This document shows, piece by piece, positions 2,823-59,692 of a stretch of DNA of 64,000 nucleotides. The stretch is from Pseudomonadales bacterium (GTDB taxonomy: Bacteria; Pseudomonadota; Gammaproteobacteria; Pseudomonadales; Azotimanducaceae). Below the pieces are notes generated by a model, which was given only the letters and a program-made list of their open reading frames with translations, was not told the origin of the DNA and ran no database searches. The stretch covers positions 256,416 through 320,415 of the forward strand of contig OY760134.1 of assembly GCA_963663145.1 (NCBI GenBank), written 5' to 3'. How positions within the stretch are numbered: the first letter of the stretch is position 1; every line of letters begins with the position of its first letter. The position numbers and the translations under genes were made by a program.

Positions 2823-2980
2823 CGCTTCTCGCAGGTTCCACAGAAAGGGGGCGTATTCCCAAATCAAGCTTGCGCGACGCAGCGGCTTGCCTTGACGCAA
2901 AGGAAGCCTATTCAATTGTGCAGGAAGCCTTGATGCTTGACAAGCGATTAAAACTCATGTATAAGCCTTGACTATGACTA

Positions 2981-2992
2981 TTGATATATCAA
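2981..2992. promoter_or_regulatory. Perfect 12-bp palindrome TTGATATATCAA in the AT-rich region upstream of the giant adhesin gene
   Basis: Seen directly. It lies in a conspicuously AT-rich ~120-bp stretch (2950-3070) between ilvD and the 3135 start. Its function as an operator is only a guess. Confidence 0.2.
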
Positions 2993-3096
2993 GTAATTTT
3001 GGAGAGAATTAGATAAGCTGTTGATAATTCATTAGTTATTGCTAAGGGGCAGATGAAGGGATTCATTACCATCCGCGATTTGGGAGCGTACCCACC

Positions 3097-3104
3097 GGGG
3101 GGGG
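3097..3104 (+). repeat. Homopolymeric G8 tract, 30 nt upstream of the giant adhesin start codon
   Basis: The sequence reads cccaccGGGGGGGGaactcg. I did not notice another G/C run this long near a gene start, but I did not scan the window exhaustively. Confidence 0.9.
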
Positions 3105-3134
3105 AACTCGGCGTCCAGCCTGGAGAGCAGTAGA

Positions 3135-6100
3135 ATGAAGCCCGGTTCGCAAAAGTTAAGTACTTTTGCGGGCTGTAGCCTGCCTTTACTGCTGATCATC
3201 CTCGCTTGGCTTTGGGCGACACCCGTCTTGGCACAAAGCGTGACGCTGTCGACAGGCTATTCACCCACCGTGAAAACGGCGACCTTGACCATTTCCGGCC
3301 ACACGGCCGCTTGGTGGCACAAGAGCGACCAAACCAACGCCACCTGCGCTTCCGTCGCCGCCAATTCCTCAAGCGCGGATCTGACCAACCTGACCGGTGG
3401 CACCACCTATGTGTGGAAAGCCTATAGCGATAGCAGTTGCAGCACTGAGCTTGCAAGCACGACCTTCACCACCATTGCCGTCACCATTGATCAGGTCACC
3501 GCGACGACGGCGAGGCTGAACCTCAATCACAACACCCATCGGACTTGGTCTTACAAGCAGACATCGCCGACAAGCAGTCCTGCCCAAGCTTGCCAGCAAG
3601 ACTGGCTTTGGGCGTTTAATCCAGAAGATAGTCCGCAATCGCTGACCGGATTATCGCCGAGCTCAAGCTACACCTTTACCGTCTATTGGGGCGCCGGCTG
3701 TGCGGCCGGAAAAGAGGCCGAAGCTGTCGCCTTCACTACTTCCGCTGCCACGCTGGCGGTCAGCAGCATCACGACGACAACGGCGACCCTGACCATTTCC
3801 GACCATTCGAACATCGCTTGGTGGTACCAAGGGAACCAAAGTGGCGCGACCTGCACGTCTGTCGCCGCGAACACCCTGACCGCGAATCTGGCCGACCTGA
3901 CAGTGGGTACGGAATATACCTACAAGGCCTATCGTGCCTCGGGCTGCGCTGCGGCAAACGAGATCGCCAGCCGCACTTTCACCACCCTAGCCGGCCCCCC
4001 GAGCGCGCCTTCCAATCTGAGCTCAACAAAATCTTGGCGTCCCGCCAGTCTCCCTCCGAATCCCGTGCAATACCCGAGTGGGATTCGGGTGCGATTCTCA
4101 TGGACCTCGGGTGCGGACAACGGCGCGACGATCACAGGCACCGACCTGCGATACCGACGAACGAGTCCCGTGGGCAGCTGGCAGATCCAGAGGAACGCAC
4201 ATATAACCGAAGCAACCCTGACGTTTGTTTCGACCATCACCAATTTCGGCAAGGCGATGGAGTTCCAGGTCAAGGACGACAACTCCAAGGGGGCTGGCAC
4301 GTGGTCCGCGTCTTCGGCCTTTACGGTGGCGCTCGAGCCAGCCAAGCCCACCGCACCGTCAATTACCCCCGGCCACAAGCAGTTGGGCCTTTCTTGGACG
4401 GCACCCGACAGCCGCGGCGCGGACATCACCGGCTATGAGGTCCAATACCGCTTGGGCAGTTCCGGAGACTGGACCGACCATACGCACTCCGGTACCGGAA
4501 CGACAGCGACCATCACCGGCCTGAACATAGCGACCGCCTACCAGGTGTGGTTCAGAGCCACCAACTCCGAGGGAGATGGGGCATGGTCGGATGCCGCGTC
4601 CGCAACCACACTCGATAGGCCGGGCGAAGTCGCGGGCCTGACCGCCACCGCCGGCAGCGACGGGTCCATCGATCTGGACTGGACCGCCATAAGCGAGGCG
4701 GCAAGCTACAAGGCGCAGTACAAGTATGGTACCCAAGACTGGTCGGCGACGCGGCAGTCCACGGCGACCACCAACTCGCTCAACATTGCCCGCAGCTTAC
4801 TCACCGCGAACACTGCCCACTCCTTCCGGGTGGCGGCGACAAACGGCAGCGGCGATGGTCCCTGGTCCGACGAGGTGGTGGCGACGCCGGTGGACGTGAC
4901 ACTGCAGGCGAGTACTGTCGGGGCGGACAGCGCGACTCTCACGATCGGCAACTACAGTGGCACTTGGTATTACAAGCAGAGCGCGCCGACGGCCGGAACC
5001 TGCTCTAGCGGGGTGTCCACCGCATCAACGACTCTAAGCAGCCTATCGACCGGCCAGATCCACACCTTCAAGGCCTATAAGGACAGTCAATGCACGGGCG
5101 CCGTGCTTGCCACCGCGCCTCCATTCCTGACCAAGCCCGGCAAGGCGGCTGGCGTGACGGCCACCGCGGCCGCCGCCGCCCTCGACCTGAGCTGGACCGC
5201 GACCACTGGCGCGTCGGGCTACAAGGTGCAATGGAAGTCCGGCAGCGACGATTGGAGCGCCACCAGCCGGCAGACCACCTCGACCACCGCCTCGGCGACG
5301 ATTCCTTCACTGACCAACGGCACGATTTACACGGTGCGCGTGGCGGCGGTCAACGACGTCGGCGACGGCGTCTGGTCGGACACCGCCACGGGCACACCGT
5401 CCGGGAGCGTGCTGCGCTTGGCGGCGGGGACATCGACAGGCGGTGCGGTGATCAACATCTCGGGACATGCCGGAACCTGGTACTCGAAAGCTACCCCGCC
5501 CACGGACGCCACCTGCGAAACGAACAGTACCTCCACAAAATCCGTGACGGGCAAAAGCTCGGGCACCAGCTACACGATTACGGCCTACAGCGACTCGAAC
5601 TGCGCGACCCAACTCACGTCGCTCGGGTTCACCACCCTGCCCGCCAAGGTGACCGGCGTGACTGTTGTGGCGCGCGCCGCCTCGCTCGGTGTGAGCTGGA
5701 CGGCGGAAACCGGCAACGCCGCCACCAGCTACAAGGTGCAGTGGAAGTCCGGCGCACAGGGCTACGCCGCCAACCGCCAGGTCATCACCACCAAGACCCG
5801 TGCATCGCTGACCGGCCTCACCAACGCCACGCAGTACACCATCCGCGTGGCGGCAACGAATGCCGGCGGCCCCGGCTCGTGGTCCGACAACGCCACCGGC
5901 ACGCCTTCGGCGACGGCGGTCACGCTGACCGCTAGCGTGACCGCCAGCGGGGGTTCGTTCACCCTCGCCAACCATGCCGGAAATTGGTGGTACAAGATCA
6001 CCCCGCCAGCCACCGCGACCTGCAGCCAAGGCCCTTCCAGCAAAACGCTCGTCAGCTCCACCTTGAGTTCCGGCACTGAATACACGCTCGCGGCCTACAG

Positions 6101-45594: not shown

Positions 45595-46749
45595 ATGTTC
45601 TTCGAACGCTTAATCCAGCGCCCGCTTGATGCGCACAAGAGTTTCTTCCTGTTCGGCCCCCGCGGAACGGGAAAAACCACTTGGCTCAAGCGCAAATTGC
45701 CGAATGCCTTGTTTGTGGATCTTCTGCAATCGGAGTTCTATCTGCCGCTGACCGCCAACCCTGGGTTGCTCAGCGAACTCATTCCTTGGAGATACCATGA
45801 TTGGGTGGTCATTGACGAAATCCAACGAATTCCGCAACTCTTAAATGAAGTGCACCATCTGATCGAAAGTCGCGGGTTGGCGTTCATATTGACAGGCTCA
45901 AGTGCGCGTAGTCTGCGGCGCAAAGGGGTCAACTTACTGGCCGGACGCGCCCTGACCTACCATTTGCACCCCCTTACCGTCCAAGAGCAGCGTGCGCAGT
46001 TCTCTCTGCACGATTCGCTACGTCTTGGCCACCTGCCCGCCAGATTCAGCGAAGCCGACGCGGAAAAGTACCTGCAGGATTACGTGCACACCTATTTGCG
46101 CGAAGAGGTTATGCAGGAAGGACTTACGCGCAATATCGGGCATTTCTCGCGCTTTCTCGAAGTAGCAAGTTTCTCTCAGGGGTCTGTCCTCAACCTAAGC
46201 AACGTCGCCCGCGAAGCGCAAATTGAGCGGCACCTCGCCGAGAGTTACTTTTCCATTCTCGAAGACCTGCTCATCGCGGTGCGTCTGCCGGTGTTCAGTC
46301 GCAAGGCCAAACGCCAGATCGTTTCGAAAATGAAGTTCTACTTGTTCGATGTTGGTGTGTTCAGGGCCATACGTCCACACGGGCCGTTGGACTCGGAAGC
46401 GGATATGGGCGGACCGGCACTGGAAACGCTAGTGCTACAGGAAGCGCTCGCACTCAACGAATACGGTGGATACGACTACCAATTTCACTTTTGGCGCACC
46501 CGTAGCGGCATGGAGGTAGACTTCGTACTCTATGGTGCGCGTGGACTGATCGCGATCGAAATCAAGCGCGCACGGCAGGTCCACAGCCGGGACACCAGAG
46601 CACTACGTGAATTCAAGAAGGACTACCCCGCTGCCCGGTGTTTCCTCTTCTACGGCGGATCCCTTCCGTTGCATCAAGAGGATGTCTCGGTCCTGCCCAT
46701 CGAGTACGCACTGCTCAACTTGGACAGCATTCTGCGCAACCAAGATTGA
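45595..46749 (+). CDS. AAA-type ATPase (AAA_14 + DUF4143), paralogous architecture to 12513..13913
   Basis: Walker A is GPRGTGKTT and Walker B is WVVIDEIQ. The C-terminal GMEVDFVLYGARGLIAIEIKRA has a D...ExK pattern. It is preceded by an AT-rich 240-bp intergenic region. Confidence 0.85.
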   Translation: MFFERLIQRPLDAHKSFFLFGPRGTGKTTWLKRKLPNALFVDLLQSEFYLPLTANPGLLSELIPWRYHDWVVIDEIQRIPQLLNEVHHLIESRGLAFILTGSSARSLRRKGVNLLAGRALTYHLHPLTVQEQRAQFSLHDSLRLGHLPARFSEADAEKYLQDYVHTYLREEVMQEGLTRNIGHFSRFLEVASFSQGSVLNLSNVAREAQIERHLAESYFSILEDLLIAVRLPVFSRKAKRQIVSKMKFYLFDVGVFRAIRPHGPLDSEADMGGPALETLVLQEALALNEYGGYDYQFHFWRTRSGMEVDFVLYGARGLIAIEIKRARQVHSRDTRALREFKKDYPAARCFLFYGGSLPLHQEDVSVLPIEYALLNLDSILRNQD

Positions 46750-46815: not shown

Positions 46816-48546
46816 TTGCGAGTTAGCCAGTTCCCGCTTTTCACCTTGCGCGGGACACCCGCCGATGCGGAGACGGTGAGTCACCGGCTCATGCTGCGGG
46901 CGGGGCTCATCAGGCAATTGACCTCCGGGGTCTATTCTTGGCTGCCGCTTGGCGTGCGCGTGCTGCGCAAGGTTGAACGGATCTTGAGAGAGGAACTCGA
47001 CCGTGCCGGGTCGGTAGAGGTATCCATGCCGACGGTACAGCCGAGGGAGCTCTGGGACGAGTCGGGTCGATGGTCGGCCATGGGCCCGGAACTCTTGCGC
47101 TTCAAGGATCGCCATGATCGCGACTCCTGTCTTGGACCAACCCATGAGGAAGTCATCACTGACATCTTTCGCCGCGAAATTCGCAGCTATCGTCAGCTTC
47201 CCTGCAACTTCTACCAGATTCAAACGAAGTTTCGCGACGAGATACGTCCGCGCTACGGAGTCATGCGTGCGCGGGAATTTGTCATGAAGGATGCTTACTC
47301 CTTCCATATCGACCAAGCGAGCTTTGATGAAACCTATAAGGCCATGTTCAATTGCTATTGCCGAATTCTCGAGCGAGCCGGACTCGAATACCGGGCGGTT
47401 GAAGCCGACTCGGGCGCCATAGGTGGGGCGGTTTCGCACGAGTTTCAGGTGTTGGCGGAGTCTGGCGAGGACAGCATCTTCTTTAGCACCGAATCGGACT
47501 ATGCCGCCAACATGGAAAAGGCTGAGGCACTGCCGCCGGCCGGGGAGCGGCCGGAACCTAGTGAGGAGCGAATCATCATAGATACGCCTGGCGTACACAG
47601 CATCGATGAATTGGTGCAATTGACCGGGTTGCCGGCGAATCGCATGCTCAAGACGCTGATCGCTGCGGGCGAAGAAGGTCCGGTGGCACTGGTGCTGCGC
47701 GGCGATCATCAACTCAATGAAATCAAGGCGGCCAAGCTTGACGGCATCGAGTCGCCGCTTCGCATGCTCTCGGCGGAAGAAGTCAAGCAAGCGCTGGGGG
47801 TCGGCGTGGGTTCTCTTGGGCCGGTTGGCCTCAAGCTTGACCTTTATATGGACCGCAGTGCCTGGCATCTGGCCGACTTCGCCTGCGGTGCCAACATTGA
47901 AGAGAAGCATTTCACCGGTGTGAACTGGACGCGCGATCTACCCGAGGTGACGAGCGAGCGGGTTCGCGACCTGCGGCAAGTGGTTGAAGGCGATCCATCG
48001 CCGGATGGCAAGGGCCATCTCAAGATGCTGCGCGGTGTTGAGGCCGGGCATGTGTTTCAACTCGGCACCAAGTACAGCAAGTCGATGAACGTCACCATTC
48101 AAGATGAGCATGGCGAGAACTTGCACCCGCTCATGGGCTGTTATGGATTCGGTGTAACGAGAATTGTGGCCGCCGCCATCGAGCAGTGCCACGACGAGCA
48201 AGGCATCGTCTGGCCCCCAAGCCTCGCGCCGTTTCAGGTGGAACTGGTGCCGCTCGGAGCGGAACGGTCAGAGGAAGTTCGCGAGACGGCGAACAGAATC
48301 TACCAAGAACTCAAACAAGCCGACGTGGATGTGCTCATGGACGACCGCGACGAACGCCCCGGCGTCAAGCTCGCCGATGCCGACCTGATCGGCATCCCTT
48401 GGCGCGTCGTGGTCGGGCAACGGAATCTTGCCGACAATAAGGTCGAACTCGTTCAGCGCAAGACGCGGAGTTCGGAACTCGTCAGCGAACAGGACGCGAT
48501 GGATCAATTACTCGCAATCGCCGCAAGCAGCGAATCGCGTGTCTGA
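46816..48546 (+). CDS. proS: Proline--tRNA ligase (bacterial type with editing domain)
   Basis: MRVSQFPLFTLRGTPADAETVSHRLMLRAGLIRQLTSGVYSWLPLG is collinear with E. coli ProS. The start is TTG with SD GAAGGAG 6 nt upstream. Confidence 0.95.
   Translation: MRVSQFPLFTLRGTPADAETVSHRLMLRAGLIRQLTSGVYSWLPLGVRVLRKVERILREELDRAGSVEVSMPTVQPRELWDESGRWSAMGPELLRFKDRHDRDSCLGPTHEEVITDIFRREIRSYRQLPCNFYQIQTKFRDEIRPRYGVMRAREFVMKDAYSFHIDQASFDETYKAMFNCYCRILERAGLEYRAVEADSGAIGGAVSHEFQVLAESGEDSIFFSTESDYAANMEKAEALPPAGERPEPSEERIIIDTPGVHSIDELVQLTGLPANRMLKTLIAAGEEGPVALVLRGDHQLNEIKAAKLDGIESPLRMLSAEEVKQALGVGVGSLGPVGLKLDLYMDRSAWHLADFACGANIEEKHFTGVNWTRDLPEVTSERVRDLRQVVEGDPSPDGKGHLKMLRGVEAGHVFQLGTKYSKSMNVTIQDEHGENLHPLMGCYGFGVTRIVAAAIEQCHDEQGIVWPPSLAPFQVELVPLGAERSEEVRETANRIYQELKQADVDVLMDDRDERPGVKLADADLIGIPWRVVVGQRNLADNKVELVQRKTRSSELVSEQDAMDQLLAIAASSESRV
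48482..48546 (+). repeat. Direct repeat copy 1 (3' end of proS)
   Basis: The core 48496-48546 is identical at 49 of 51 positions to 50241-50291. Weaker similarity extends ~14 nt upstream. Confidence 0.85.
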
Positions 48547-48595
48547 GGGCGGTTTCATAGACCTATAATACGAACTATCAGCAGTCATTCTAGGA

Positions 48596-49618
48596 TTGCA
48601 CATTAGAGTCTTTGGAGCTTCGCTAGCAGGCGACGACCTTTTACTTGGCGGATTTGACGGAACACACTTTGCGAACCACAAGAGACGTAGCGGCGTGGCA
48701 TTCTCTGTTTTAGAACTCTGCGCAGGTGCGGGCGGGCAGGCCTTGGGGTTTGAGTCAGCTGGATTCCATCACGCGGCCTTGATTGACAATGACGCTCATG
48801 CTTGCGCGACCTTAAGGATGAACCGTCCCTATTGGAATGTCATTGAAGCTGATATTCGTCGTTTTGATGCGGAATACTGGCGTGAAATCGATGTTGTGGC
48901 GGGAGGACTGCCCTGCCCTCCATTTTCCGTTGCGGGAAAGCAAAACGGGGCGGAGGACGAACGGGATTTGTTTCCCACACTACTGAATATTGTGCGTGCG
49001 GCAAAGCCTAGGATTGTTATTGTGGAAAATGTTCGCGGGTTGCTCATGCGGCGCTTCGAAGAGTATAGGAACAGCATCGTTGCTTCGCTCTCATCCATGG
49101 GATATGAGTCATCCTGGCAACTACTGGATGCCTTAGACTTTGGTGCCCCACAAAAGCGCACGCGCAGTTTTCTCGTTGCGGTACCGAAAGGTGTTTCCTT
49201 CGTTTGGCCGGTCCCGAATGGGAACGGTGCGACGGTTGGAACAGTGCTTCACGACCTCATGGCGGAGGCTGGGTGGCGTGGATCTACGAGATGGGCGGAA
49301 GAGGCCAATCATCCGGCACCTACACTGGTTGGGGGGTCGAAAAAGCATGGCGGGCCCGATCTGGGACCGACCCGCGCCCGCGCTGAGTGGGCGAAACTCG
49401 GTGTCGACGGTCTGGGCATTGCAGATGGACCCCCATCCGCCAATTTCGAAGGCAAACCAAGATTGACGGTGCGTATGGCTGCTCGTCTTCAGACTTTCCC
49501 TGACGACTGGAGACTCGCTGGAAGCAAAACCCAAAGCTATCGACAGGTGGGCAATGCGCTGACCGTGAATTTGGCTGAAGCTATGGCAAAAGCGGTGATG
49601 AGATGTCTGACAAGTTGA
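48596..49618 (+). CDS. DNA (cytosine-5)-methyltransferase
   Basis: m5C MTase motifs are present: I LELCAGAGGQALG, IV GGLPCPPFS, VI ENVRGL, VIII QKRTRSF, X GNALTV. The real start may be GTG 48695, just before motif I. The region is visibly lower in GC than proS. Confidence 0.9.
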   Translation: MHIRVFGASLAGDDLLLGGFDGTHFANHKRRSGVAFSVLELCAGAGGQALGFESAGFHHAALIDNDAHACATLRMNRPYWNVIEADIRRFDAEYWREIDVVAGGLPCPPFSVAGKQNGAEDERDLFPTLLNIVRAAKPRIVIVENVRGLLMRRFEEYRNSIVASLSSMGYESSWQLLDALDFGAPQKRTRSFLVAVPKGVSFVWPVPNGNGATVGTVLHDLMAEAGWRGSTRWAEEANHPAPTLVGGSKKHGGPDLGPTRARAEWAKLGVDGLGIADGPPSANFEGKPRLTVRMAARLQTFPDDWRLAGSKTQSYRQVGNALTVNLAEAMAKAVMRCLTS

Positions 49619-50199
49619 AAGGCAAGTCCGGCATAAAGGCATTCTTGCTGGAAAACCTTGGAAAGGTCGTCACGACAAAACAAATATATGAGGCAAGTGG
49701 AGAACAAGGACAATATGGTCGGCGATTGCGAGAATTGCGCGATGAAGAGGGTTGGCCAATTGAGTCTCACAACGACGCTGCCGACCTCAAACCAGGCGAA
49801 TACAGGCTCACCGGTTGGCCCCCGCTTGCGCCGCCGATCAAGTTTGAGCGGTCGGTGAGTGCTCGCCTGCGTGCGCAAGTATTGGAGCGAAATGGATACA
49901 CCTGCCGCATGTGCGGTATAGCTGCCGGAGACCCCGATGATCGTAGCGGGCGCCCCGCGAGGCTACATGTCGGCCATATTGTGGATAAGAGCCATGGAGG
50001 CGCTGATAGTCTTGATAATCTTCGCGCACTATGCAGCACCTGCAATCAGGGTGCTAGAAATCTGACGCAGGAGCCGCCTTCATGGACATGGCTGCTTTCG
50101 CAGTTGCGGAGAGCTAAGGAAGGCGACCAACGAGCAGCATTCGAGTGGTTGAAAGCGAAATTTGAACGCCGAGACAGCGCGGATGAGGGTGATTCTTGA
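49603..50199 (+). CDS. HNH-nuclease restriction endonuclease candidate (type II R-M partner)
   Basis: The C-terminal HNH motif is HVGHIVDKSHGGADSLDNLRALCSTCNQGARN. An N-terminal wHTH-like region is present. The gene overlaps the methyltransferase gene by 16 nt. Confidence 0.8.
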   Translation: MSDKLKGKSGIKAFLLENLGKVVTTKQIYEASGEQGQYGRRLRELRDEEGWPIESHNDAADLKPGEYRLTGWPPLAPPIKFERSVSARLRAQVLERNGYTCRMCGIAAGDPDDRSGRPARLHVGHIVDKSHGGADSLDNLRALCSTCNQGARNLTQEPPSWTWLLSQLRRAKEGDQRAAFEWLKAKFERRDSADEGDS

Positions 50200-50226
50200 C
50201 CCGGACGGAGCGTATGTACCAGCTTT

Positions 50227-50291
50227 TCAGCGAGAAGGAAGCGATGGATCAATTGCTCGCAATCGCCTCAAGCAGCGAATCGCGTGTCTGA
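50227..50291 (+). repeat. Direct repeat copy 2 (orphan proS 3'-end remnant)
   Basis: It encodes ...SEKEAMDQLLAIASSSESRV-stop, compared with the ProS C-terminus SEQDAMDQLLAIAASSESRV-stop. Confidence 0.85.
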
Positions 50292-50308
50292 AGACTGAAT
50301 AGCCCCGG

Positions 50309-50404
50309 CTAGTCAATCACCTGTAAGGATTCCAATTCGGCCGCCAAGGAGAGCCTCTGGTCCAATATGAGCAGCGGCATGAGCGCAGAAGAGTCCCAGT
50401 ACAT
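50309..50404 (-). pseudogene. vapC (PIN-domain toxin) 5' fragment, 31 codons
   Basis: MYWDSSALMPLLILDQRLSLAAELESLQVID-stop. The (Y/L)(L/W)D(S/T)SAL start is the first PIN acidic motif. The ATG overlaps the phd stop (TGATG). About 100 codons are missing, and the fragment ends 17 nt from repeat copy 2. Confidence 0.6.
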
Positions 50405-50700
50405 CAAAACCGATCTCTCCTATCCTCAAGGAGCGCCTCCAGAACACTGACGCCCAAATTCAAAGGCGGCTGCTTCAAAATCTCCTCGCAGTCTCCCTTC
50501 CCGGCGCGCAGCACACCATCGGCAATCAACTGTGTGAGTATGGCTTCCTGTTCCCCTTCATCGCTTGCAGTCAATTCGACCGGCTTTAACCAAGCGACGG
50601 GCGTGCCACGGTCAAGTACCTGAACCTCACCGCCGCGACGAACTTCTCGAAGATAGCGGGAGAGGTTTGCTTTGAGCTCCGAAACCGATGCCTTAGACAT
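50404..50700 (-). CDS. Phd/YefM-family (prevent-host-death) antitoxin
   Basis: MSKASVSELKANLSRYLREVRRGGEVQVLDRGTPVAWLKPV is the typical Phd/YefM N-terminal domain, and the protein is 98 aa. Confidence 0.8.
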   Translation of the reverse strand: MSKASVSELKANLSRYLREVRRGGEVQVLDRGTPVAWLKPVELTASDEGEQEAILTQLIADGVLRAGKGDCEEILKQPPLNLGVSVLEALLEDRRDRF

Positions 50701-50725: not shown

Positions 50726-50740
50726 TGACTTGTCAAGTCA
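50726..50740. promoter_or_regulatory. Perfect 15-bp palindrome TGACTTGTCAAGTCA upstream of phd (candidate autoregulatory operator)
   Basis: The palindrome lies 26 nt upstream of the phd start codon. The operator role is inferred from the general behaviour of type II TA promoters. Confidence 0.45.
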
Positions 50741-50838: not shown

Positions 50839-51327
50839 TCATTTCGGTGCGGAAATGCTTGAGATCGCCTCACGCAAGGAATCCTGGGTCTGAGGGCCAA
50901 GCAGCACCTGCTGAACCTCACCGCCGGGCGCGATGATGGCAGTTCTTGGCAGGAGGGTTGAGGTCCCATAACCCCAAACAGATGCCGGATCTTGTGTGAA
51001 CACCGGAAACTCAATCCCCATGTCGGCGATATCCTCACGTAGTTGCTGGTCGGCGTGAAAGTCCTCCCCGTAGCCGAATACCAGTACCTCATCCGGATCC
51101 ACTGATTCTGCGAGCAAATTGAGTTCGGGGATTTCAATCCTGCAAGGCGCGCACCAAGTCGCCCAGTGATTGATCACCAGGGTCTTTGTGTGAAGGGATT
51201 CCTTGGAGACCAGCGCGCCGTCGGCCAAGGGCAGTTGCGCCTCTGCGCAAGAGACTATAGCGAGCACTACGATGAGAAGCCCTGCAAGGGCAAGACAACG
51301 GCTCGGCAGGCGGCAATGCGGGTTCAT
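50839..51327 (-). CDS. TlpA-like periplasmic thiol:disulfide oxidoreductase (thioredoxin fold)
   Basis: It has the active site WATWCAPC and a signal/lipoprotein-like N-terminus (LAGLLIVVLAIVSCAEA). ATG 51327 is used because the track start 51414 overlaps the upstream gene. Confidence 0.8.
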   Translation of the reverse strand: MNPHCRLPSRCLALAGLLIVVLAIVSCAEAQLPLADGALVSKESLHTKTLVINHWATWCAPCRIEIPELNLLAESVDPDEVLVFGYGEDFHADQQLREDIADMGIEFPVFTQDPASVWGYGTSTLLPRTAIIAPGGEVQQVLLGPQTQDSLREAISSISAPK

Positions 51328-51370
51328 CCAAATATACCGTGAGCGATCAACTGACACTTGTCGTTGCACG

Positions 51371-52822
51371 CTAAGTGGTGGATCGACCATTCGTCTCTTC
51401 TCCCAGCCGCTCAAGCGCTTCTTGGGTCTTTGCGATGCGGCTCTTCAGCCAACCCGTTTCACTGAAGTTGCTGCCTTCCTTGTAGGCGCGTTCGAGTAGG
51501 TTCTCAAGGGTATTCAGGCGCGCTTGCAGGAGCGCCGCGTGATTGGCATCGGCAGCGAGTCCGATTTCGACCCAATGCAGTGCGGCCTCCGGTTCTCCAG
51601 CGTCGAGGTGGCGCCGCGCTTCGTTGGCGAGCCGTTCGGCGCCTCCGGCCAAACGGGCGAGGTCCGCATAGATCTCGCGAACCTTGACCGGATAGAGCTC
51701 GGTGGTCGATTCAAAATGAAACCACGTACTGTAATGCTCCCAGATACTGCGCACGTTCCAAGAGACCTTACCGTGCCCTTGGCTCAAGGCCAGTTCGGGA
51801 GGCAGTTTCACGTCGCGCATGAGCTCCCAAACCGACTTGCCTTGATTCATGCCGGCAAGGGTTTGGTCGTGAATGAACAGGGTCGCATCGCGCATCTTCC
51901 GCATGTCGGCAAGTATCTGTTCACGGCCCGCCACGGGGTCGAAGTGGCTCGGCAGCACCATCTCCGGCTCAAGCTTGATCAACCTCTCAAGCGAAGTCAC
52001 GTACGCCAACGGGTCGCGGAACTTCTCACCCCGCAGGGTGAAGAGATTCGGCACCATGGGAAACAGCGGCCCGAAGAAGTCCCCGCTGAAGAGTAGGCGT
52101 TTGTCCGGCATCCACAGCACGAGATTGTCATTGCCTTCGGCGCCAGCGGCGCCGATCGCCTCAAAGCGCACCCCTCCCAAGTCGAACGCGAAGATTTCGC
52201 CCTCCCTGACTTCGATATCTGGGGAAATCCCTCCATAGGCGTTCATTCTGCCTTGCGGAGGCTCTTCGGGCATGAAGGTGTAGAGCAGGCGATTCCTTGA
52301 CCAGAAATGACGCTCCAGGTCCTCAAGGTAGCGTTGTCCATCAACAAATTTCTCATGGGCGACAATCTTGGCGTCCGGAAACTCGGCCAGCCAGAATTTC
52401 GTACCGCCAATATGGTCGGCGTGCGAATGCGAGAGCACAATGTAGACGACATCACCGGGCGCGACCTCTTGCAATAGGCGCTTGTGCTTTGCGGCTTGCG
52501 TCACGAGTCCGGTATCAAAGATCACCAAGCCTTCGTCAGTGGAGACAAGAAAGGTGTTGCCCACACCGCTGGCGCGAAACACCCCATCGGCAGGCTCATC
52601 CACCGCAACCTCAATCAGCGCCAGTCCTGCAACGGTCTTGACCTTTGCCCGTTCATCGACTTCAGTCCGCGCGGCCACATAGGAACTTGCGAGTGTGCCG
52701 ACAACCTCGGCGCGACGTTCTTCAACTGCCCGGCCGATACCTGAATCACGCAGGAAATACCCCAACAGGACGCCGATCAAAAGCGCAGCGACCCATTTCC
52801 ACCAAAATGCCATTGTCTTCAC
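51371..52822 (-). CDS. MBL-fold metallo-hydrolase with an alkyl-sulfatase-like helical C-terminal domain, N-terminal membrane anchor
   Basis: It has the HxHxDH motif (LSHSHADHIGG) and the N-terminal TM segment WKWVAALLIGVLLGYFL. The C-terminal helical region resembles the dimerisation domain of SdsA1-type sulfatases, and there is no SCP2 domain. Confidence 0.75.
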   Translation of the reverse strand: MKTMAFWWKWVAALLIGVLLGYFLRDSGIGRAVEERRAEVVGTLASSYVAARTEVDERAKVKTVAGLALIEVAVDEPADGVFRASGVGNTFLVSTDEGLVIFDTGLVTQAAKHKRLLQEVAPGDVVYIVLSHSHADHIGGTKFWLAEFPDAKIVAHEKFVDGQRYLEDLERHFWSRNRLLYTFMPEEPPQGRMNAYGGISPDIEVREGEIFAFDLGGVRFEAIGAAGAEGNDNLVLWMPDKRLLFSGDFFGPLFPMVPNLFTLRGEKFRDPLAYVTSLERLIKLEPEMVLPSHFDPVAGREQILADMRKMRDATLFIHDQTLAGMNQGKSVWELMRDVKLPPELALSQGHGKVSWNVRSIWEHYSTWFHFESTTELYPVKVREIYADLARLAGGAERLANEARRHLDAGEPEAALHWVEIGLAADANHAALLQARLNTLENLLERAYKEGSNFSETGWLKSRIAKTQEALERLGEETNGRSTT

Positions 52823-53595
52823 CTCGTGTTCAGGGAATTACAAGCAGTAGTCCGACTCCCCGATTCTTGTCGGAGCCAATTCAACGGCAACAATCAACTG
52901 ATCGCCGCTAAAGCGATTCCACTGCTCCGGTGCTATCTGTATTGGATGCAAGGAATATCTCGATACCGCCAATGCCTACCGTATAGTCTCTTACAACCTC
53001 AATGATTGAAGAATTACCCAAACCGTACTTCTTGCACCCAATTGCCTAGGCTTCTTCTTCCTCTTCGAAAGTGCTTACATGAACACCATCATGCAATAGC
53101 ATGGCGAGTCCTTCCTTCTCTGGAACCAATTCGAAACTGTGCTTGTACTTGTTGATGTATGCCCGGCGATTGATGCGAGTCTGCTCGGATAACAAACTTG
53201 ACATGACGATTCAACTCCAAGGCTAGAGACATCCGAAACTGATACTACCACGCTCCTCACAATGTCCCCTCAGCTTAATGACAGAGCCATCCTATGTCTT
53301 GTGGCGATGATACGGCACCGGCAGCCCTATTAGCTTGGGTATTCTGCGGCTCCGTTCAACCATTTCCTCACACCACTCCGGTGATTTTCTTAATCTGATT
53401 CACTCGGTCTTCCAAGACATCAATGTATGCAGCGCCTGTCTTCAGATAAATGGGTAGGTTGTGTTCTGGGATTGTCGCTTGAGTGGGTCTTGAAAGCTCA
53501 GGTGCCCGTTTCAGCAGTCTCCCGGCACCACGCGCTGTTCCGGAAGGTCGCGCTGCGCCTCGGCTCCTCCTGACCCCGAACAGCGTTGCCTCGGC

Positions 53596-53711
53596 GCGCG
53601 AAAAACCCGGATCCGGGGCTTCGCACGGTCAAAAACCCGGCCAAGACACAAAGTTCTCGGCGCTGCGGTAAATTCAACCTAATTCTTCGTCAATCATGAA
53701 ATATCCGGGCT
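53596..53711. repeat. ~115-bp direct repeat, copy A
   Basis: It is about 90 percent identical by hand alignment to 57679-57791. The shared core is CCCGGATCCGGGGCTTCGCACGGTCAAAAA..GGCCAAGACA..TTCTCGGCGCTGCGG..TTCAACCTAATTCTTCGTCA..TGAAATATCCG. Weaker similarity may extend ~90 nt further upstream. Confidence 0.8.
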
Positions 53712-57141: not shown

Positions 57142-57678
57142 GGGCGCTACCAGCAAATGGCTTGAATGCCCAGATTCCCTGATAAGAAAAAGAGCAGTAG
57201 GGAGGTTCGGGTGCACGCTGACGGGATGGTTTGGCAAAATATCAGTGTAATCTTAAGTCATCCTGTAGGTGCGCCTCACGAAGAGAATGATGGAGCCGAA
57301 TCCGGTGAAAGTCGAGACGGAGTGTACGGACGCGATGCTGAACGGGAAGGGCGGCTGGTCGGTGCTGGCGAGGCGGCTCAGGGGGCGGAAGGTGCGCCTG
57401 CGATGCGATCTGGCGCATGCGTTTGCGAAGCGGGTGGCGCCGACGGTGGTGGAACTGGAATTGCCAACGCGGGGGTGCGTGCCGGTGTTCGTAGACGGGA
57501 CGGAGCATTGAGGTGGAAGGAGATCTGTTCGCGGGCGTGCGGAAGCTGTGCGACGGGAGCTGCGGGTGCTGGCTGCAGGGGGTGTTGTCGGGTGCCTGTG
57601 GGTGACGGGCCGACTGTGTCCGAGCGGCTGTCCCGGCGCGCGTGAAGACAATCGGGGTTGGGGATGGTGCCCCGCGGT

Positions 57679-57791
57679 GCGCGGAACACCCGGATCCGGG
57701 GCTTCGCACGGTCAAAAATCTGGCCAAGACAAAATTCTCGGCGCTGCGGACATTTCAACCTAATTCTTCGTCACTCGTGAAATATCCGAGC
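57679..57791. repeat. ~115-bp direct repeat, copy B (abuts the prpE stop codon)
   Basis: See copy A. On the prpE-sense strand it contains an 11-bp hairpin (CGGAUAUUUCA / UGAAAUGUCCG, 20-nt loop) beginning 3 nt after the stop. It is therefore probably the native prpE 3' flank. Confidence 0.8.
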
Positions 57792-59692
57792 TACTGGTGA
57801 GCCTCGGCACCAGATGAGATTTCGGCAACGACCCCTTCATCCTCAATCGTCGGCGGCATGGTCCACTCATCGCCGTCGACAATTTTTCGCAGCAGGCTGC
57901 GCAGTATTTTCCCCGAACGAGTCTTGGGTAAGCGGGTCACCACAACCGCCCGCCGAAAATAGGCGAATGCACCGATTTCGGCTCGGACCTTGGCAACCAG
58001 TTCCGCCTCCAAGATCGAAGCGTCGATGTTCACACCATCTTTGAGCACCAGCACTCCGAGCGGAACCTGGCCGCGAGTCTCGTCGCGTGCGCCCACGACC
58101 GCACATTCAGCCACCGCCGGATGGTCGGCGATGACCTCTTCGAGTTCGCCGCTTGAGAGCCGATGACCGGCCACGTTCATCACGTCATCGTTGCGGCCCA
58201 TGATGAAGATATAGCCATCCTCATCTCGAAAGCCGCCATCGCCGGTCAGGTAATAGCCTGGGAATTGCGACCAATAGGACTCAAGGTAACGCGAGTGATC
58301 GCCCCACACCGAGAAGAGATTTCCCGGCGGCAGTGGTTCGGCGAGCACTATGTTCCCTTCCACACCGGCCCCAACCTCCTTGCCCTGATCGTCCACCACC
58401 CGAAGGTCGTAGCCGGGCACCGGCAAGCTCACCGAGCCGGGTTTCGCTGGAACCAGCCCGAGCCCTGCGGGATTGGCGCAAATCGACCAACCGGTTTCGG
58501 TCTGCCACCAATGGTCGATGACCGGCACATCGAGATGCTCGCTGAGCCAGTGGTAGGTGGGCGGGTCCAGCCGTTCGCCGGCGACAAACAGATTCGCGAG
58601 GCAGGAGATGTCGTAGCTCGCCAAGAGACTCGCCTCTGGGTCTTCCTTGCGCACGGCGCGAAAGGCTGTTGGAGCGACAAAGAAGGTGCGAACCGAATGC
58701 GATTCGATCACGCGCCAAATGGCACCGGCATCGGGGGTTCGTACCGGCTTACCCTCATAGAGAACGCTCGTACAGCCGCGAATGAGCGGGGCATAGGCGA
58801 TATACGAGTGACCCACGACCCAGCCCACATCGGACGCGGCCCAGAACACATCCCCGGCATGGGTATCGTAGATTGCCGACATGGTGTAGTTGAGGGCGAC
58901 CGAGTGACCGCCGGTATCCCGGAGCACGCCCTTTGGCCGCCCGGTGGTTCCCGAGGTATAGAGGATATAGAGCGGATCAGTCGCGTGGACTGGTACAAAG
59001 TCCGCCGCGGTCGTCTGCTGCATCATCGCATCCCAGTCCAGATCCCTGCCTGCCTGAAGCTCCGAGGGACACTGTTCGCGCTGTTTGATGATGCAGCGCG
59101 TCGGGGGATGACGGGCCAAGCGAAGCGCCTCTTCAATCATCGGCATGTAGGGGATGGCGGTCGCGAACTCGATGCCGCAAGAGGCCGCGAGCAGCACCTT
59201 GGGCTTTGCATCATCGATACGCACCGCAAGCTCAGGTGCCGCGAACCCGCCGAACACGACCGAGTGAATCGCACCGAGCCGTGCACAGGCCAGCATGCTG
59301 ACGATGGCCTCTGGAATCATCGGCATGTAAATGATGACCCGATCACCTTTTTGCACGCCTTGGTCGCGCAACATGCCCGCCGCGCGCGCAACAAGATCGC
59401 GCAATTCGGCAAAGCTCGCCCGCTGTATCTGACCAGTGACGGGAGAATCGTAAATGAGCGCCACCTGCTCGTGACGCCCTTCGTCGCAATGCCGGTCGAG
59501 TGCCAGCCAGCAGGTGTTGGTCAGTCCACCGGCGAACCAGCGATTGGTGCCGTTCTCGTCTCGGCTGAGGATTTCCGTCGGCGGCTCGAGCCAGGGAAGC
59601 TGCTCCGCTTGCGCCTTCCAGAAGGATGCCGGATCCTCAAGCGAGCGCTCAAATTCGCGCCGCCATCTGGGAGAGCCGAGCGAGGCGTTCAT
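57791..59692 (-). CDS. prpE: Propionate--CoA ligase (acyl-CoA synthetase, PrpE-like)
   Basis: The 633-aa protein is collinear with E. coli PrpE (FWKAQAE..RWFAGGLTN.., ILYTSGTTGRPKGV, DIGWVVGHSYI, WQTETGW, PKTRSGKILR). Confidence 0.8.
   Translation of the reverse strand: MNASLGSPRWRREFERSLEDPASFWKAQAEQLPWLEPPTEILSRDENGTNRWFAGGLTNTCWLALDRHCDEGRHEQVALIYDSPVTGQIQRASFAELRDLVARAAGMLRDQGVQKGDRVIIYMPMIPEAIVSMLACARLGAIHSVVFGGFAAPELAVRIDDAKPKVLLAASCGIEFATAIPYMPMIEEALRLARHPPTRCIIKQREQCPSELQAGRDLDWDAMMQQTTAADFVPVHATDPLYILYTSGTTGRPKGVLRDTGGHSVALNYTMSAIYDTHAGDVFWAASDVGWVVGHSYIAYAPLIRGCTSVLYEGKPVRTPDAGAIWRVIESHSVRTFFVAPTAFRAVRKEDPEASLLASYDISCLANLFVAGERLDPPTYHWLSEHLDVPVIDHWWQTETGWSICANPAGLGLVPAKPGSVSLPVPGYDLRVVDDQGKEVGAGVEGNIVLAEPLPPGNLFSVWGDHSRYLESYWSQFPGYYLTGDGGFRDEDGYIFIMGRNDDVMNVAGHRLSSGELEEVIADHPAVAECAVVGARDETRGQVPLGVLVLKDGVNIDASILEAELVAKVRAEIGAFAYFRRAVVVTRLPKTRSGKILRSLLRKIVDGDEWTMPPTIEDEGVVAEISSGAEAHQ

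Follow-up and report, generated by a model that had tools for sequence, protein, structure and literature searches.

How can a pair of restriction-modification (R-M) genes that brings no recombinase of its own settle at the end of a working gene and leave that gene intact? The question is raised by a locus in a 64,000-nt stretch of DNA (the window) from a Pseudomonadales bacterium of the Azotimanducaceae (GCA_963663145.1, OY760134.1, 256,416–320,415). The genome to which the window belongs (G000) is a metagenome-type assembly made up of one 3.07-Mb contig (C1). A methyltransferase gene (M) and a nuclease gene (R) lie here between two copies of the 3′ end of proS, the prolyl-tRNA synthetase gene. 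We propose that the R-M pair was inserted at this gene end without a recombinase, after a phd-vapC toxin-antitoxin module had entered the same site, and that at least 65–69 nt were duplicated; the mechanism we infer is host-driven insertion-duplication followed by trimming. We assign this account a probability of about 0.8. Comparison with related genomes shows two recombinase-free insertions at a single dual-coding overlap, with the target duplicated each time and both overlapping genes keeping their 3′ ends.

The first step of the argument is the repeat itself. The proS gene (46816–48546, plus strand) is intact and encodes a 576-aa protein with the tRNA-synt_2b, tRNA_edit and HGTP_anticodon Pfam domains, 89–93% identical in amino acid sequence to the orthologues of the relatives G005 and L151. 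Its last 65 nt (48482–48546) recur in direct orientation at 50227–50291, with 60 of the 65 positions identical and 49 of 51 in the inner 51 nt. The chance probability of a 60/65 match in a fixed register is about 6e-26, and a BLAST search of the whole 3.07-Mb genome with the repeat segment returns these two places only (E = 6e-28 and 2.5e-21). An earlier sequence-only reading of the locus had reported that the last 51 nt of proS recur, that the similarity reaches some 14 nt further upstream, that the second copy still encodes the proS end with its stop and that proS is preserved; the alignment and the domain matches bear out all of this. The homology probably runs 4 nt beyond the proS stop, which would bring the repeat to 69 nt. 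Copy 1 (48482–48550) is the working 3′ end of proS, comprising its TGA stop and the 4 nt that follow. Copy 2 (50227–50295) is an orphan that retains the proS stop at 50289–50291 and, read as a proS end, encodes ...EAMDQLLAIASSSESRV-stop.

Two features of the repeat had escaped the sequence-only reading. The repeated segment is the stretch over which proS and a converging thioredoxin-like gene overlap. In addition, there is a third, diverged copy at 50853–50912, which forms the current 3′ end of the thioredoxin-like gene of the window (repeat family D1) and is about 70% identical to copy 2 (44/64, P ~2e-10). On the minus strand of copy 1, the old tail of the thioredoxin gene, QTRDSLLAAIASN-stop, is still readable. 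Copy 2 is made up of 22 nt of proS only, the 43-nt overlap and about 20 nt of the thioredoxin gene only. The ancestral stop of the thioredoxin gene lies on its minus strand at 50249–50251, in the same 43-nt register as at empty sites, and the minus-strand reading is ...LQTRDSLLEAIASN-stop compared with ...PQTRESLLEAIAST-stop in G005. To the right of the copy 2 stop, the sequence remains weakly homologous to the thioredoxin gene as far as about 50311 (15 of 23 positions, P ~5e-4). Copy 1 is collinear with the relatives leftward through proS, and copy 3 is collinear with them rightward into the thioredoxin gene, whose orthologue in the relatives runs on continuously with copy 3.

What did the site look like before the insertions? 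We compared it in five congeneric genomes (G001–G005) and in three metagenome contigs of the same clade (L151, L152 and L153), which were found with the antitoxin gene phd as the query. By amino acid identity of ProS to that of the window, L151 is the closest relative (93%) and G005 is the closest congener (89%), with L153 at 88%. M, R and phd are absent from the proS site in all five congeners. These genomes and L153 are free of the cassette and have one copy of the repeated segment at proS, the state that the sequence-only reading had named as the check on an insertion. At the empty site, proS and the thioredoxin-like gene overlap convergently by 43 nt in G005 and L153 and by 80 nt in G002, G003 and G004; in G001, the two genes are adjacent, 38 nt apart. 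In other genera of the family (L009, L013, L014, L015, L018, L021 and L022), a conserved gene for an SLT-type lytic transglycosylase stands between them. The tail-to-tail overlap is, on this comparison, a derived state of the genus of the window. A family-wide hotspot between the two genes was considered and rejected, since the gap in other genera holds the lytic transglycosylase and no mobile cargo.

The intermediate state is found in L151. Here, the order is thioredoxin-like gene (trx), phd, vapC and proS, with an intact vapC of 139 aa and without M or R, and direct repeats of the overlap segment, 71 nt long and 76% identical, lie on either side of the toxin-antitoxin pair. Three stages are thus preserved: empty, toxin-antitoxin only (L151) and toxin-antitoxin plus R-M (the window). 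The R-M pair is, by these alignments, the second of two stacked insertions, with phd-vapC the earlier one: L151 carries the toxin-antitoxin module but not R-M, and copies 1 and 2 are much more alike (92% identical) than copies 2 and 3 (~70%). The reverse order was rejected on the same two grounds. Five positions differ between copies 1 and 2; relative to the outgroups L151, L153 and G005, three are derived in copy 2, one is derived in copy 1 and one is ambiguous. This excess of derived changes in the orphan is the pattern predicted by a fresh duplication followed by decay.

The sequence comparisons show the following course of events. The phd-vapC module first entered the ancestral 43-nt overlap, duplicating at least 71 nt. 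The R-M pair then entered in the lineage of the window only, separating proS from the orphan copy that the first insertion had left behind, with a second, staggered duplication of 65–69 nt. Subsequently, the orphan copy decayed and vapC lost 108 internal codons. Because proS and the thioredoxin-like gene overlapped by 43 nt in the ancestral state, an insertion is tolerated only with the overlap duplicated and a separate 3′ end left to either gene.

The remains of the first event, which lie between copies 2 and 3, agree in detail with the L151 state. The phd/yefM-family antitoxin gene (50404–50700, minus strand) is intact and encodes 98 aa (PF02604, E = 2e-9; TIGR01552), 88% identical to the Phd of L151, and a promoter-like site lies at 50736–50708. 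The adjoining vapC remnant (50309–50404, minus strand) has 31 codons. An in-frame internal deletion has removed 108 codons (324 nt) from a gene for a PIN toxin of 139 aa, so that 13 aa of the N-terminus now adjoin 18 aa of the C-terminus. This deletion was deduced from the intact VapC proteins of L151, L153 and G225; an earlier idea that vapC is truncated at the edge of the island was given up in its favor after comparison with the L151 protein. Orphan copy 2 also lacks about 51 nt relative to L151. Deletions have therefore acted in this region, as both losses indicate. With phd/yefM-vapC modules in general, the window shares the succession of a Phd-family antitoxin and a PIN toxin, the start codon of the second gene overlapping the stop of the first, but the modules have an intact toxin where the window has a 31-codon remnant. 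The antitoxin of the window is therefore an orphan.

Elsewhere in the clade, the same module is found in another place. L153 has an empty proS site and carries its phd-vapC 2.5 kb away beside an MBL-fold gene, and the phd-vapC of L152 is likewise beside an MBL-fold gene. The modules after the MBL-fold gene (77–88% amino acid identity) occupy 6001–6716 in L153 and 5142–5863 in L152, and those between trx and proS occupy 2868–3583 in L151 and 50309–50700 in the window, with the remnant vapC. Genes for ArsC, BrkB/YihY and SnoaL come and go between MBL and trx within the clade.

We now turn to the cassette. The insert between copies 1 and 2 measures 1,676–1,680 nt (~1.68 kb), and M and R are its only open reading frames (ORFs), overlapping by 16 nt. 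A non-coding leader of 141–145 nt (48551–48691, plus strand) precedes M, and a spacer of 27 nt (50200–50226) separates the R stop from copy 2. Measured from the proS stop, the leader (48547–48691) has a GC content of 47.6% and contains TATAAT at 48565–48570, for which a promoter scan finds no acceptable −35 element. The insert has a GC content of 54.6%, against 59.2% in proS and 57.8% in the genome. ORF and domain searches of the insert find no gene for an integrase or transposase, and no tyrosine or serine recombinase gene is present beside the two ORFs. No tRNA was found in or beside the insert, and there are no Rfam matches. Neither the leader (48547–48700) nor the spacer (50190–50230) has a match in the genome or in 80 related loci. 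The sequence-only reading is thus sustained in its statement that only the overlapping M and R genes, which match PF00145 and PF01844, lie between the copies, and that integrase, transposase and tRNA are lacking. Its TATAAT box is present but has no acceptable −35 partner, and the lower GC content that it noted is real but modest.

M (48692–49618, plus strand) encodes a C5-cytosine DNA methyltransferase of ~308 aa. The start is most likely the GTG at 48692, rather than the TTG at 48596 that opens the frame, because residue 36 of the long ORF is the first in the Pfam domain and because the homologue in G001 begins MTLSAIELCAGAGG. The protein matches PF00145 (E = 4e-67, model positions 1–322 of 324), TIGR00675 and the PADLOC model MTase_II (E = 4e-97). 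Its motifs are readable: ELCAGAGG of the FxGxG type, PC in GLPCPPFS, ENV, QxRxR as QKRTR and GN in GNA. The best PDB matches are M.HaeIII and M.HhaI. A prediction of specificity from them was dropped, since M.HaeIII covers mainly the catalytic core and M.HhaI is too distant. The genome as a whole is rich in R-M genes, with seven further paralogues of 5-methylcytosine (m5C) methyltransferases besides M (tblastn, 3.07 Mb).

R (49603–50199, plus strand), whose start overlaps the end of M, encodes a 198-aa nuclease, a putative type II restriction endonuclease. It matches the HNH domain PF01844 (E = 4e-10) and, across its two domains, a pair of PADLOC REase_II models (E = 4e-11 and 6e-10). In the AlphaFold2 model (predicted local distance difference test score 87.6), the N-terminal domain is winged-helix-like and precedes a Cys4 HNH core, and the C-terminal part forms a helical hairpin. 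In a fold search, only the HNH core aligns, with a query-normalized TM-score below 0.3; it resembles EcoKMcrA (6ghc) and also the HNH domains of Cas and Cap5 proteins, and no solved counterpart of the winged-helix-like domain or of the hairpin was retrieved. The catalytic His and Asn of the HNH motif and the four zinc-binding Cys residues are invariant in 48 homologues. The family has 2830 matches at E ≤ 1e-3 from many phyla, mostly in metagenome-assembled genomes (MAGs), and the best match outside the window is 77% identical. Homologues are nearly absent from plasmids and phages (two plasmids and one phage, all ≤46% identity). R thus represents a family of winged-helix/HNH nucleases with thousands of members and no solved structure, whose members are likely type II restriction enzymes.

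M and R likely form a type II R-M pair in which R is translationally coupled to M. Family contexts were read in 80 related loci, and an m5C methyltransferase gene stands directly upstream of the R homologue in 63 of them. The Cys4-zinc ββα-Me (HNH) core of R is also that of the HNH-type type II enzymes KpnI, PacI and Hpy99I. It is shared by EcoKMcrA as well, whose gene, unlike R, is not linked to a methylase. It is unlikely, in our estimate, that the pair is something other than a restriction system, namely an orphan methylase accompanied by an HNH enzyme for nicking or repair, or a methylase with a methyl-dependent type IV enzyme. The dcm and vsr genes, an overlapping methylase and nuclease in this order, resemble the present arrangement, and the likeness of the HNH domain to EcoKMcrA, with the name 'McrA' given to homologues in some sources, points in the same direction. 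Nevertheless, the two PADLOC type II models match R across both domains, and we know of no HNH-type analogue of Vsr. Tight coupling of a methylase to a methyl-dependent nuclease would amount to self-destruction. Moreover, the pair travels as selfish cargo of IS1595-family elements and lands in islets as other addiction modules do.

The M-R pair is evidently mobile by several routes, as its homologues elsewhere show. In G001, a homologous pair (L038 = G001:C28 13751–15243; R 74%, M 60% identical) sits naked in the yqgE|ruvX spacer, without a long repeat, and this site is empty in the genome of the window (C1:336345–336405). In 13 of the 80 related loci and in the metagenome contigs L040–L043, an IS1595-family transposase gene lies directly upstream of M. 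A complete transposon of this family, 2944 bp long, occurs at 2845–5788 in both L042 and L043 (ENA ERZ25069557), at two different insertion places. It carries the transposase, an m5C methylase, an HNH nuclease and a small ORF; its inverted repeats of 25 bp are perfect, and the target duplications of 8 bp are TTCCCGAG and TTTGATTT. Its cargo is homologous to that of the window (R 74%, M ~64% amino acid identity) and has the same gene order and orientation. However, the window cassette is without a transposase, 25-bp inverted repeats and an 8-bp duplication. An IS1595 transposase has no tblastn match in the cassette or anywhere in G000, no copy of the inverted repeat was found in G000, and the L042 inverted repeat is not found within 8 mismatches in 48400–50400. 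An IS1595 origin of the window cassette was therefore rejected. Flanking repeats were examined in ~60 other M-R loci; long repeats as a trait of the R-M family were also rejected, since few of these loci have them and those found resemble copies of insertion sequences or miniature inverted-repeat transposable elements.

Two further observations concern the IS1595 association. In one MAG, the R homologue occurs three times (L052–L054), and in every case an IS1595 transposase gene lies just upstream of M. In L039 (G002:C71), a near-perfect (24/25) IS1595-type inverted repeat at 75–99 lies ~1 kb from a 44%-identical R homologue (1115–1684), and no transposase homologue was detected on this 6-kb piece.

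If the insertion at proS was not the work of a transposon, does the same architecture occur elsewhere in the genome? We compared the genome with itself for repeat pairs of 40–300 nt, at least 78% identical and 0.5–10 kb apart. There are 32 direct pairs, or ~20 independent loci after removal of obvious tandem-repeat genes, and one inverted pair. The ~20 islets are 0.8–8 kb long and are bracketed by direct repeats of 50–260 nt, mostly 85–96% identical. Each islet has a repeat pair of a different sequence, and the enclosed segments are mostly below the genome GC content. Examples of such pairs on C1 are those at 46086/48933, 79848/81858, 127784/130846, 213806/217245, 237002/241796, 804448/805774, 805585/807209, 998256/999779, 1207092/1211929, 2033743/2035297, 2380252/2381636, 2547061/2548003, 2559550/2561585, 2651958/2659917, 2709978/2711455 and 2854230/2860664. 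Most of the cargo consists of R-M, toxin-antitoxin and defense-like genes. The R-M type is represented by a D12 methylase with a NotI-family nuclease, another m5C methylase and an N6/N4 methylase. The remainder comprises VapBC, HepT, HEPN, Fic, DUF222-HNH, Schlafen/AlbA_2, a macro-domain protein and an AAA_14/DUF4143 ATPase.

The ATPase islet, which lies outside the window, is especially informative about the original length of the duplication. It is located between the genes of an E2 acyltransferase and a PduO-type protein, which stand tail to tail with adjacent stop codons, and the site (E2|pduO) is empty in G001. Of the 139 nt of the repeat, 113 are the end of E2 and 26 are the end of the PduO-type gene. 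Its orphan copy (C1:81801–81996) is composite: a 63-nt piece of the upstream gene E1 (C1:78131–78193) is fused to the E2 end (79848–79986) at a CCTTCG microhomology, and the two pieces are 1.65 kb apart in the intact copy. The duplication was therefore originally at least 1.86 kb long, and 1.65 kb of it was lost later.

We propose that the insertions arose in the following way. A circle consisting of the cargo and a copy of a local chromosomal segment would integrate by a single crossover, in a host-driven insertion-duplication whose product would be segment–cargo–segment. Microhomology-mediated deletions would then trim the redundant copy, and the present 65 nt would be a minimum, the remainder of a longer original. 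A fragment across a tail-to-tail junction would be safe, as the left copy would complete the plus-strand gene and the right copy the minus-strand gene, without downstream polarity. Such Campbell-type insertion-duplication yields a homology–cargo–homology product in direct orientation, as seen at the window locus. Fragments that contain gene 3′ ends leave the genes intact, and the duplication is as long as the homologous fragment, up to kilobases, as inferred for E2|pduO. Insertion-duplication of non-replicating circles is used for gene targeting in naturally transformable bacteria. It is thus a laboratory procedure, and natural circles of cargo and chromosomal fragment are hypothetical here.

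This mechanism is the probable one, and the process would be host-driven rather than R-M-driven, because toxin-antitoxin and ATPase cargo show the same architecture. Nothing specific to R-M is needed to explain it. The non-R-M islets across the genome, together with a sister islet whose duplication once exceeded 1.8 kb, argue for a host-driven process followed by deletional trimming. A broader generalization is offered tentatively, as a possibility with the odds somewhat against it: long target duplications around selfish cassettes would be trimmed relics of kilobase-scale, host-mediated insertion-duplication, rather than products of the cassettes themselves (for example, through R-M-induced breaks). 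If true, addiction and defense genes of every kind that enter this uncultured Pseudomonadales lineage without a recombinase would do so mainly in this way, at ~20 loci. Insertion would then be safest at tail-to-tail junctions, and one 43-nt overlap served for it twice.

Several points weigh against the account favored here. The Campbell-type mechanism is inferred from another islet of the same genome, and a trace of a longer duplication was looked for at proS itself and none was found. The nearest homologue of R is only 77% identical, and the HNH domain of R is closest to the methyl-dependent McrA. Finally, the proS 3′ end is 73–74% identical to G005 at the nucleotide level, against 80–88% in the rest of the gene, which may mean that this end was imported. 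In that case, the R-M pair would have arrived together with the proS end of a related lineage, through one homologous crossover and one illegitimate join or through integration of a homeologous circle, and copies 1 and 2 would be the alleles of two lineages. Such an import would suit the five mismatches among their 65 positions and the presence in functional copy 1 of one derived non-synonymous change (Ser to Ala) or more. It would also suit the last ~230 nt of proS, which diverge more from G005 than the remainder of the gene does. We regard it as quite unlikely, since the derived changes fall mostly in the orphan copy 2 (three against one), as decay predicts. The C-terminal tail of ProS is poorly conserved in all comparisons, and the dual-coding constraint applies only in the empty-site genomes. 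Furthermore, none of the 80 related R-M loci provides a donor with R-M beside proS.

It could also be supposed that the repeat has its original length. A staggered double-strand break with ends ~65–70 nt apart, or template switching during replication, would have captured a linear R-M fragment, followed by fill-in; long target duplications are classically pictured in this transposon-like way. Both events left similar repeats (65–69 nt and at least 71 nt), and the duplication stops only 4 nt past the proS stop, as might be expected from such a break. In contrast, another islet of the genome began with a duplication of at least 1.86 kb, which was subsequently trimmed, the repeats of the genome vary in length between 50 and 260 nt, and deletions did act at this locus (324 nt in vapC and ~51 nt of the orphan relative to L151). 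A break of this kind is accordingly judged rather unlikely. That an integrase, acting in trans or since lost, integrated the pair site-specifically and left copies 1 and 2 as attL and attR seems very improbable, and so does IS1595 transposition with later loss of the transposase and both ends, despite the fact that integrative elements often target and restore gene 3′ ends and that close homologues of M-R are IS1595 cargo. No integrase, transposase, inverted repeat or tRNA is present in or beside the insert, and the genome has neither a transposase homologue nor a copy of the inverted repeat. IS1595 duplications measure 8 bp, not 65, and the ~20 repeat pairs of the genome all differ in sequence and hence have no common att core. 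That the repeat is a chance match or an artefact of the metagenome-type assembly is a practically negligible possibility, given the P value of ~6e-26 and copies that are diverged and too short to mislead an assembler. The genome is, in addition, a single 3.07-Mb contig, and the independent assembly of L151 has the site with the older copy pair.

Other features of the window complete the description of the locus. The thioredoxin-like gene (50839–51414, minus strand) belongs to the AhpC/TSA, ResA/TlpA-like group according to Pfam and NCBIfam. Comparison with its orthologues indicates that the older insertion changed its C-terminus from ...IAST-stop to ...ISSISAPK-stop. Upstream of proS lies a gene for an AAA_14/DUF4143 ATPase (45595–46749, plus strand; PADLOC candidate defense system PDC-S01, E = 3e-54), which L151 and L153 have but G005 lacks. 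The counterpart in G005 is a 378-nt spacer with an apparent TnpB-like fragment, as read by eye, and a paralogue of this ATPase sits in the E2|pduO islet. The window contains a second islet, with 123-nt repeats at 53589–53711 and 57672–57792 that are 88% identical and enclose ~4 kb. At its site, only 23 nt separate the MBL-fold gene from prpE in G005; the junction is occupied by three small ORFs in L153 and by a cassette with an N6/N4 methylase in L152. The differing contents therefore mark a site of variable cargo within the clade.

How does the locus compare with known systems? R-M units inserted with long target duplication were reported by Nobusato et al. (2000, Gene 259:99), as cited by Furuta, Abe and Kobayashi (2010, Nucleic Acids Research 38:2428; PMC2853133). 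The latter authors define such units by R and M in an insert of less than 20 kb, a duplication of more than 30 bp, repeats that align to the empty site and the lack of any other mobile element. They note that the repeats often span start or stop codons, sparing the target gene, and describe cases in H. influenzae with 46-bp repeats overlapping gene 3′ ends (PMC2853133). In the window, the insert of 1,676–1,680 nt contains homologues of both R and M (an HNH nuclease with PADLOC REase_II matches and a PF00145 methylase), and the duplication is 65 nt long at 92% identity, probably 69. A single sequence is present at the empty site in G001–G005 and L153, and in L151 for the R-M event. There is no other mobile gene, and the repeat is not multicopy, with two copies and a diverged third. 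The assignment to R-M mobility by insertion with long target duplication, made from the sequence alone, is thus supported on every count. The locus belongs to this known class, of which it is an unusually well documented case, and is not a new kind of element.

With the members of the class, the locus shares a short insert of R and M without a mobility gene, a repeat across a stop codon and an intact target gene. It differs in that the target is a dual-coding overlap of two convergent genes, and it shows how a duplication rescues both of them. Two stacked events, one of a toxin-antitoxin module and one of an R-M pair, share the middle copy, and their stages are kept in relatives. The mechanism by which R-M and toxin-antitoxin genes spread without a recombinase is still unexplained, and this locus preserves the colonization of one site in two steps. 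Furuta et al. suggested that a property of R-M systems, such as double-strand breakage, drives the insertion (PMC2853133). In contrast to what that suggestion would lead one to expect, the same architecture surrounds non-R-M cargo in the same genome, which speaks against insertion driven by the R-M genes themselves.

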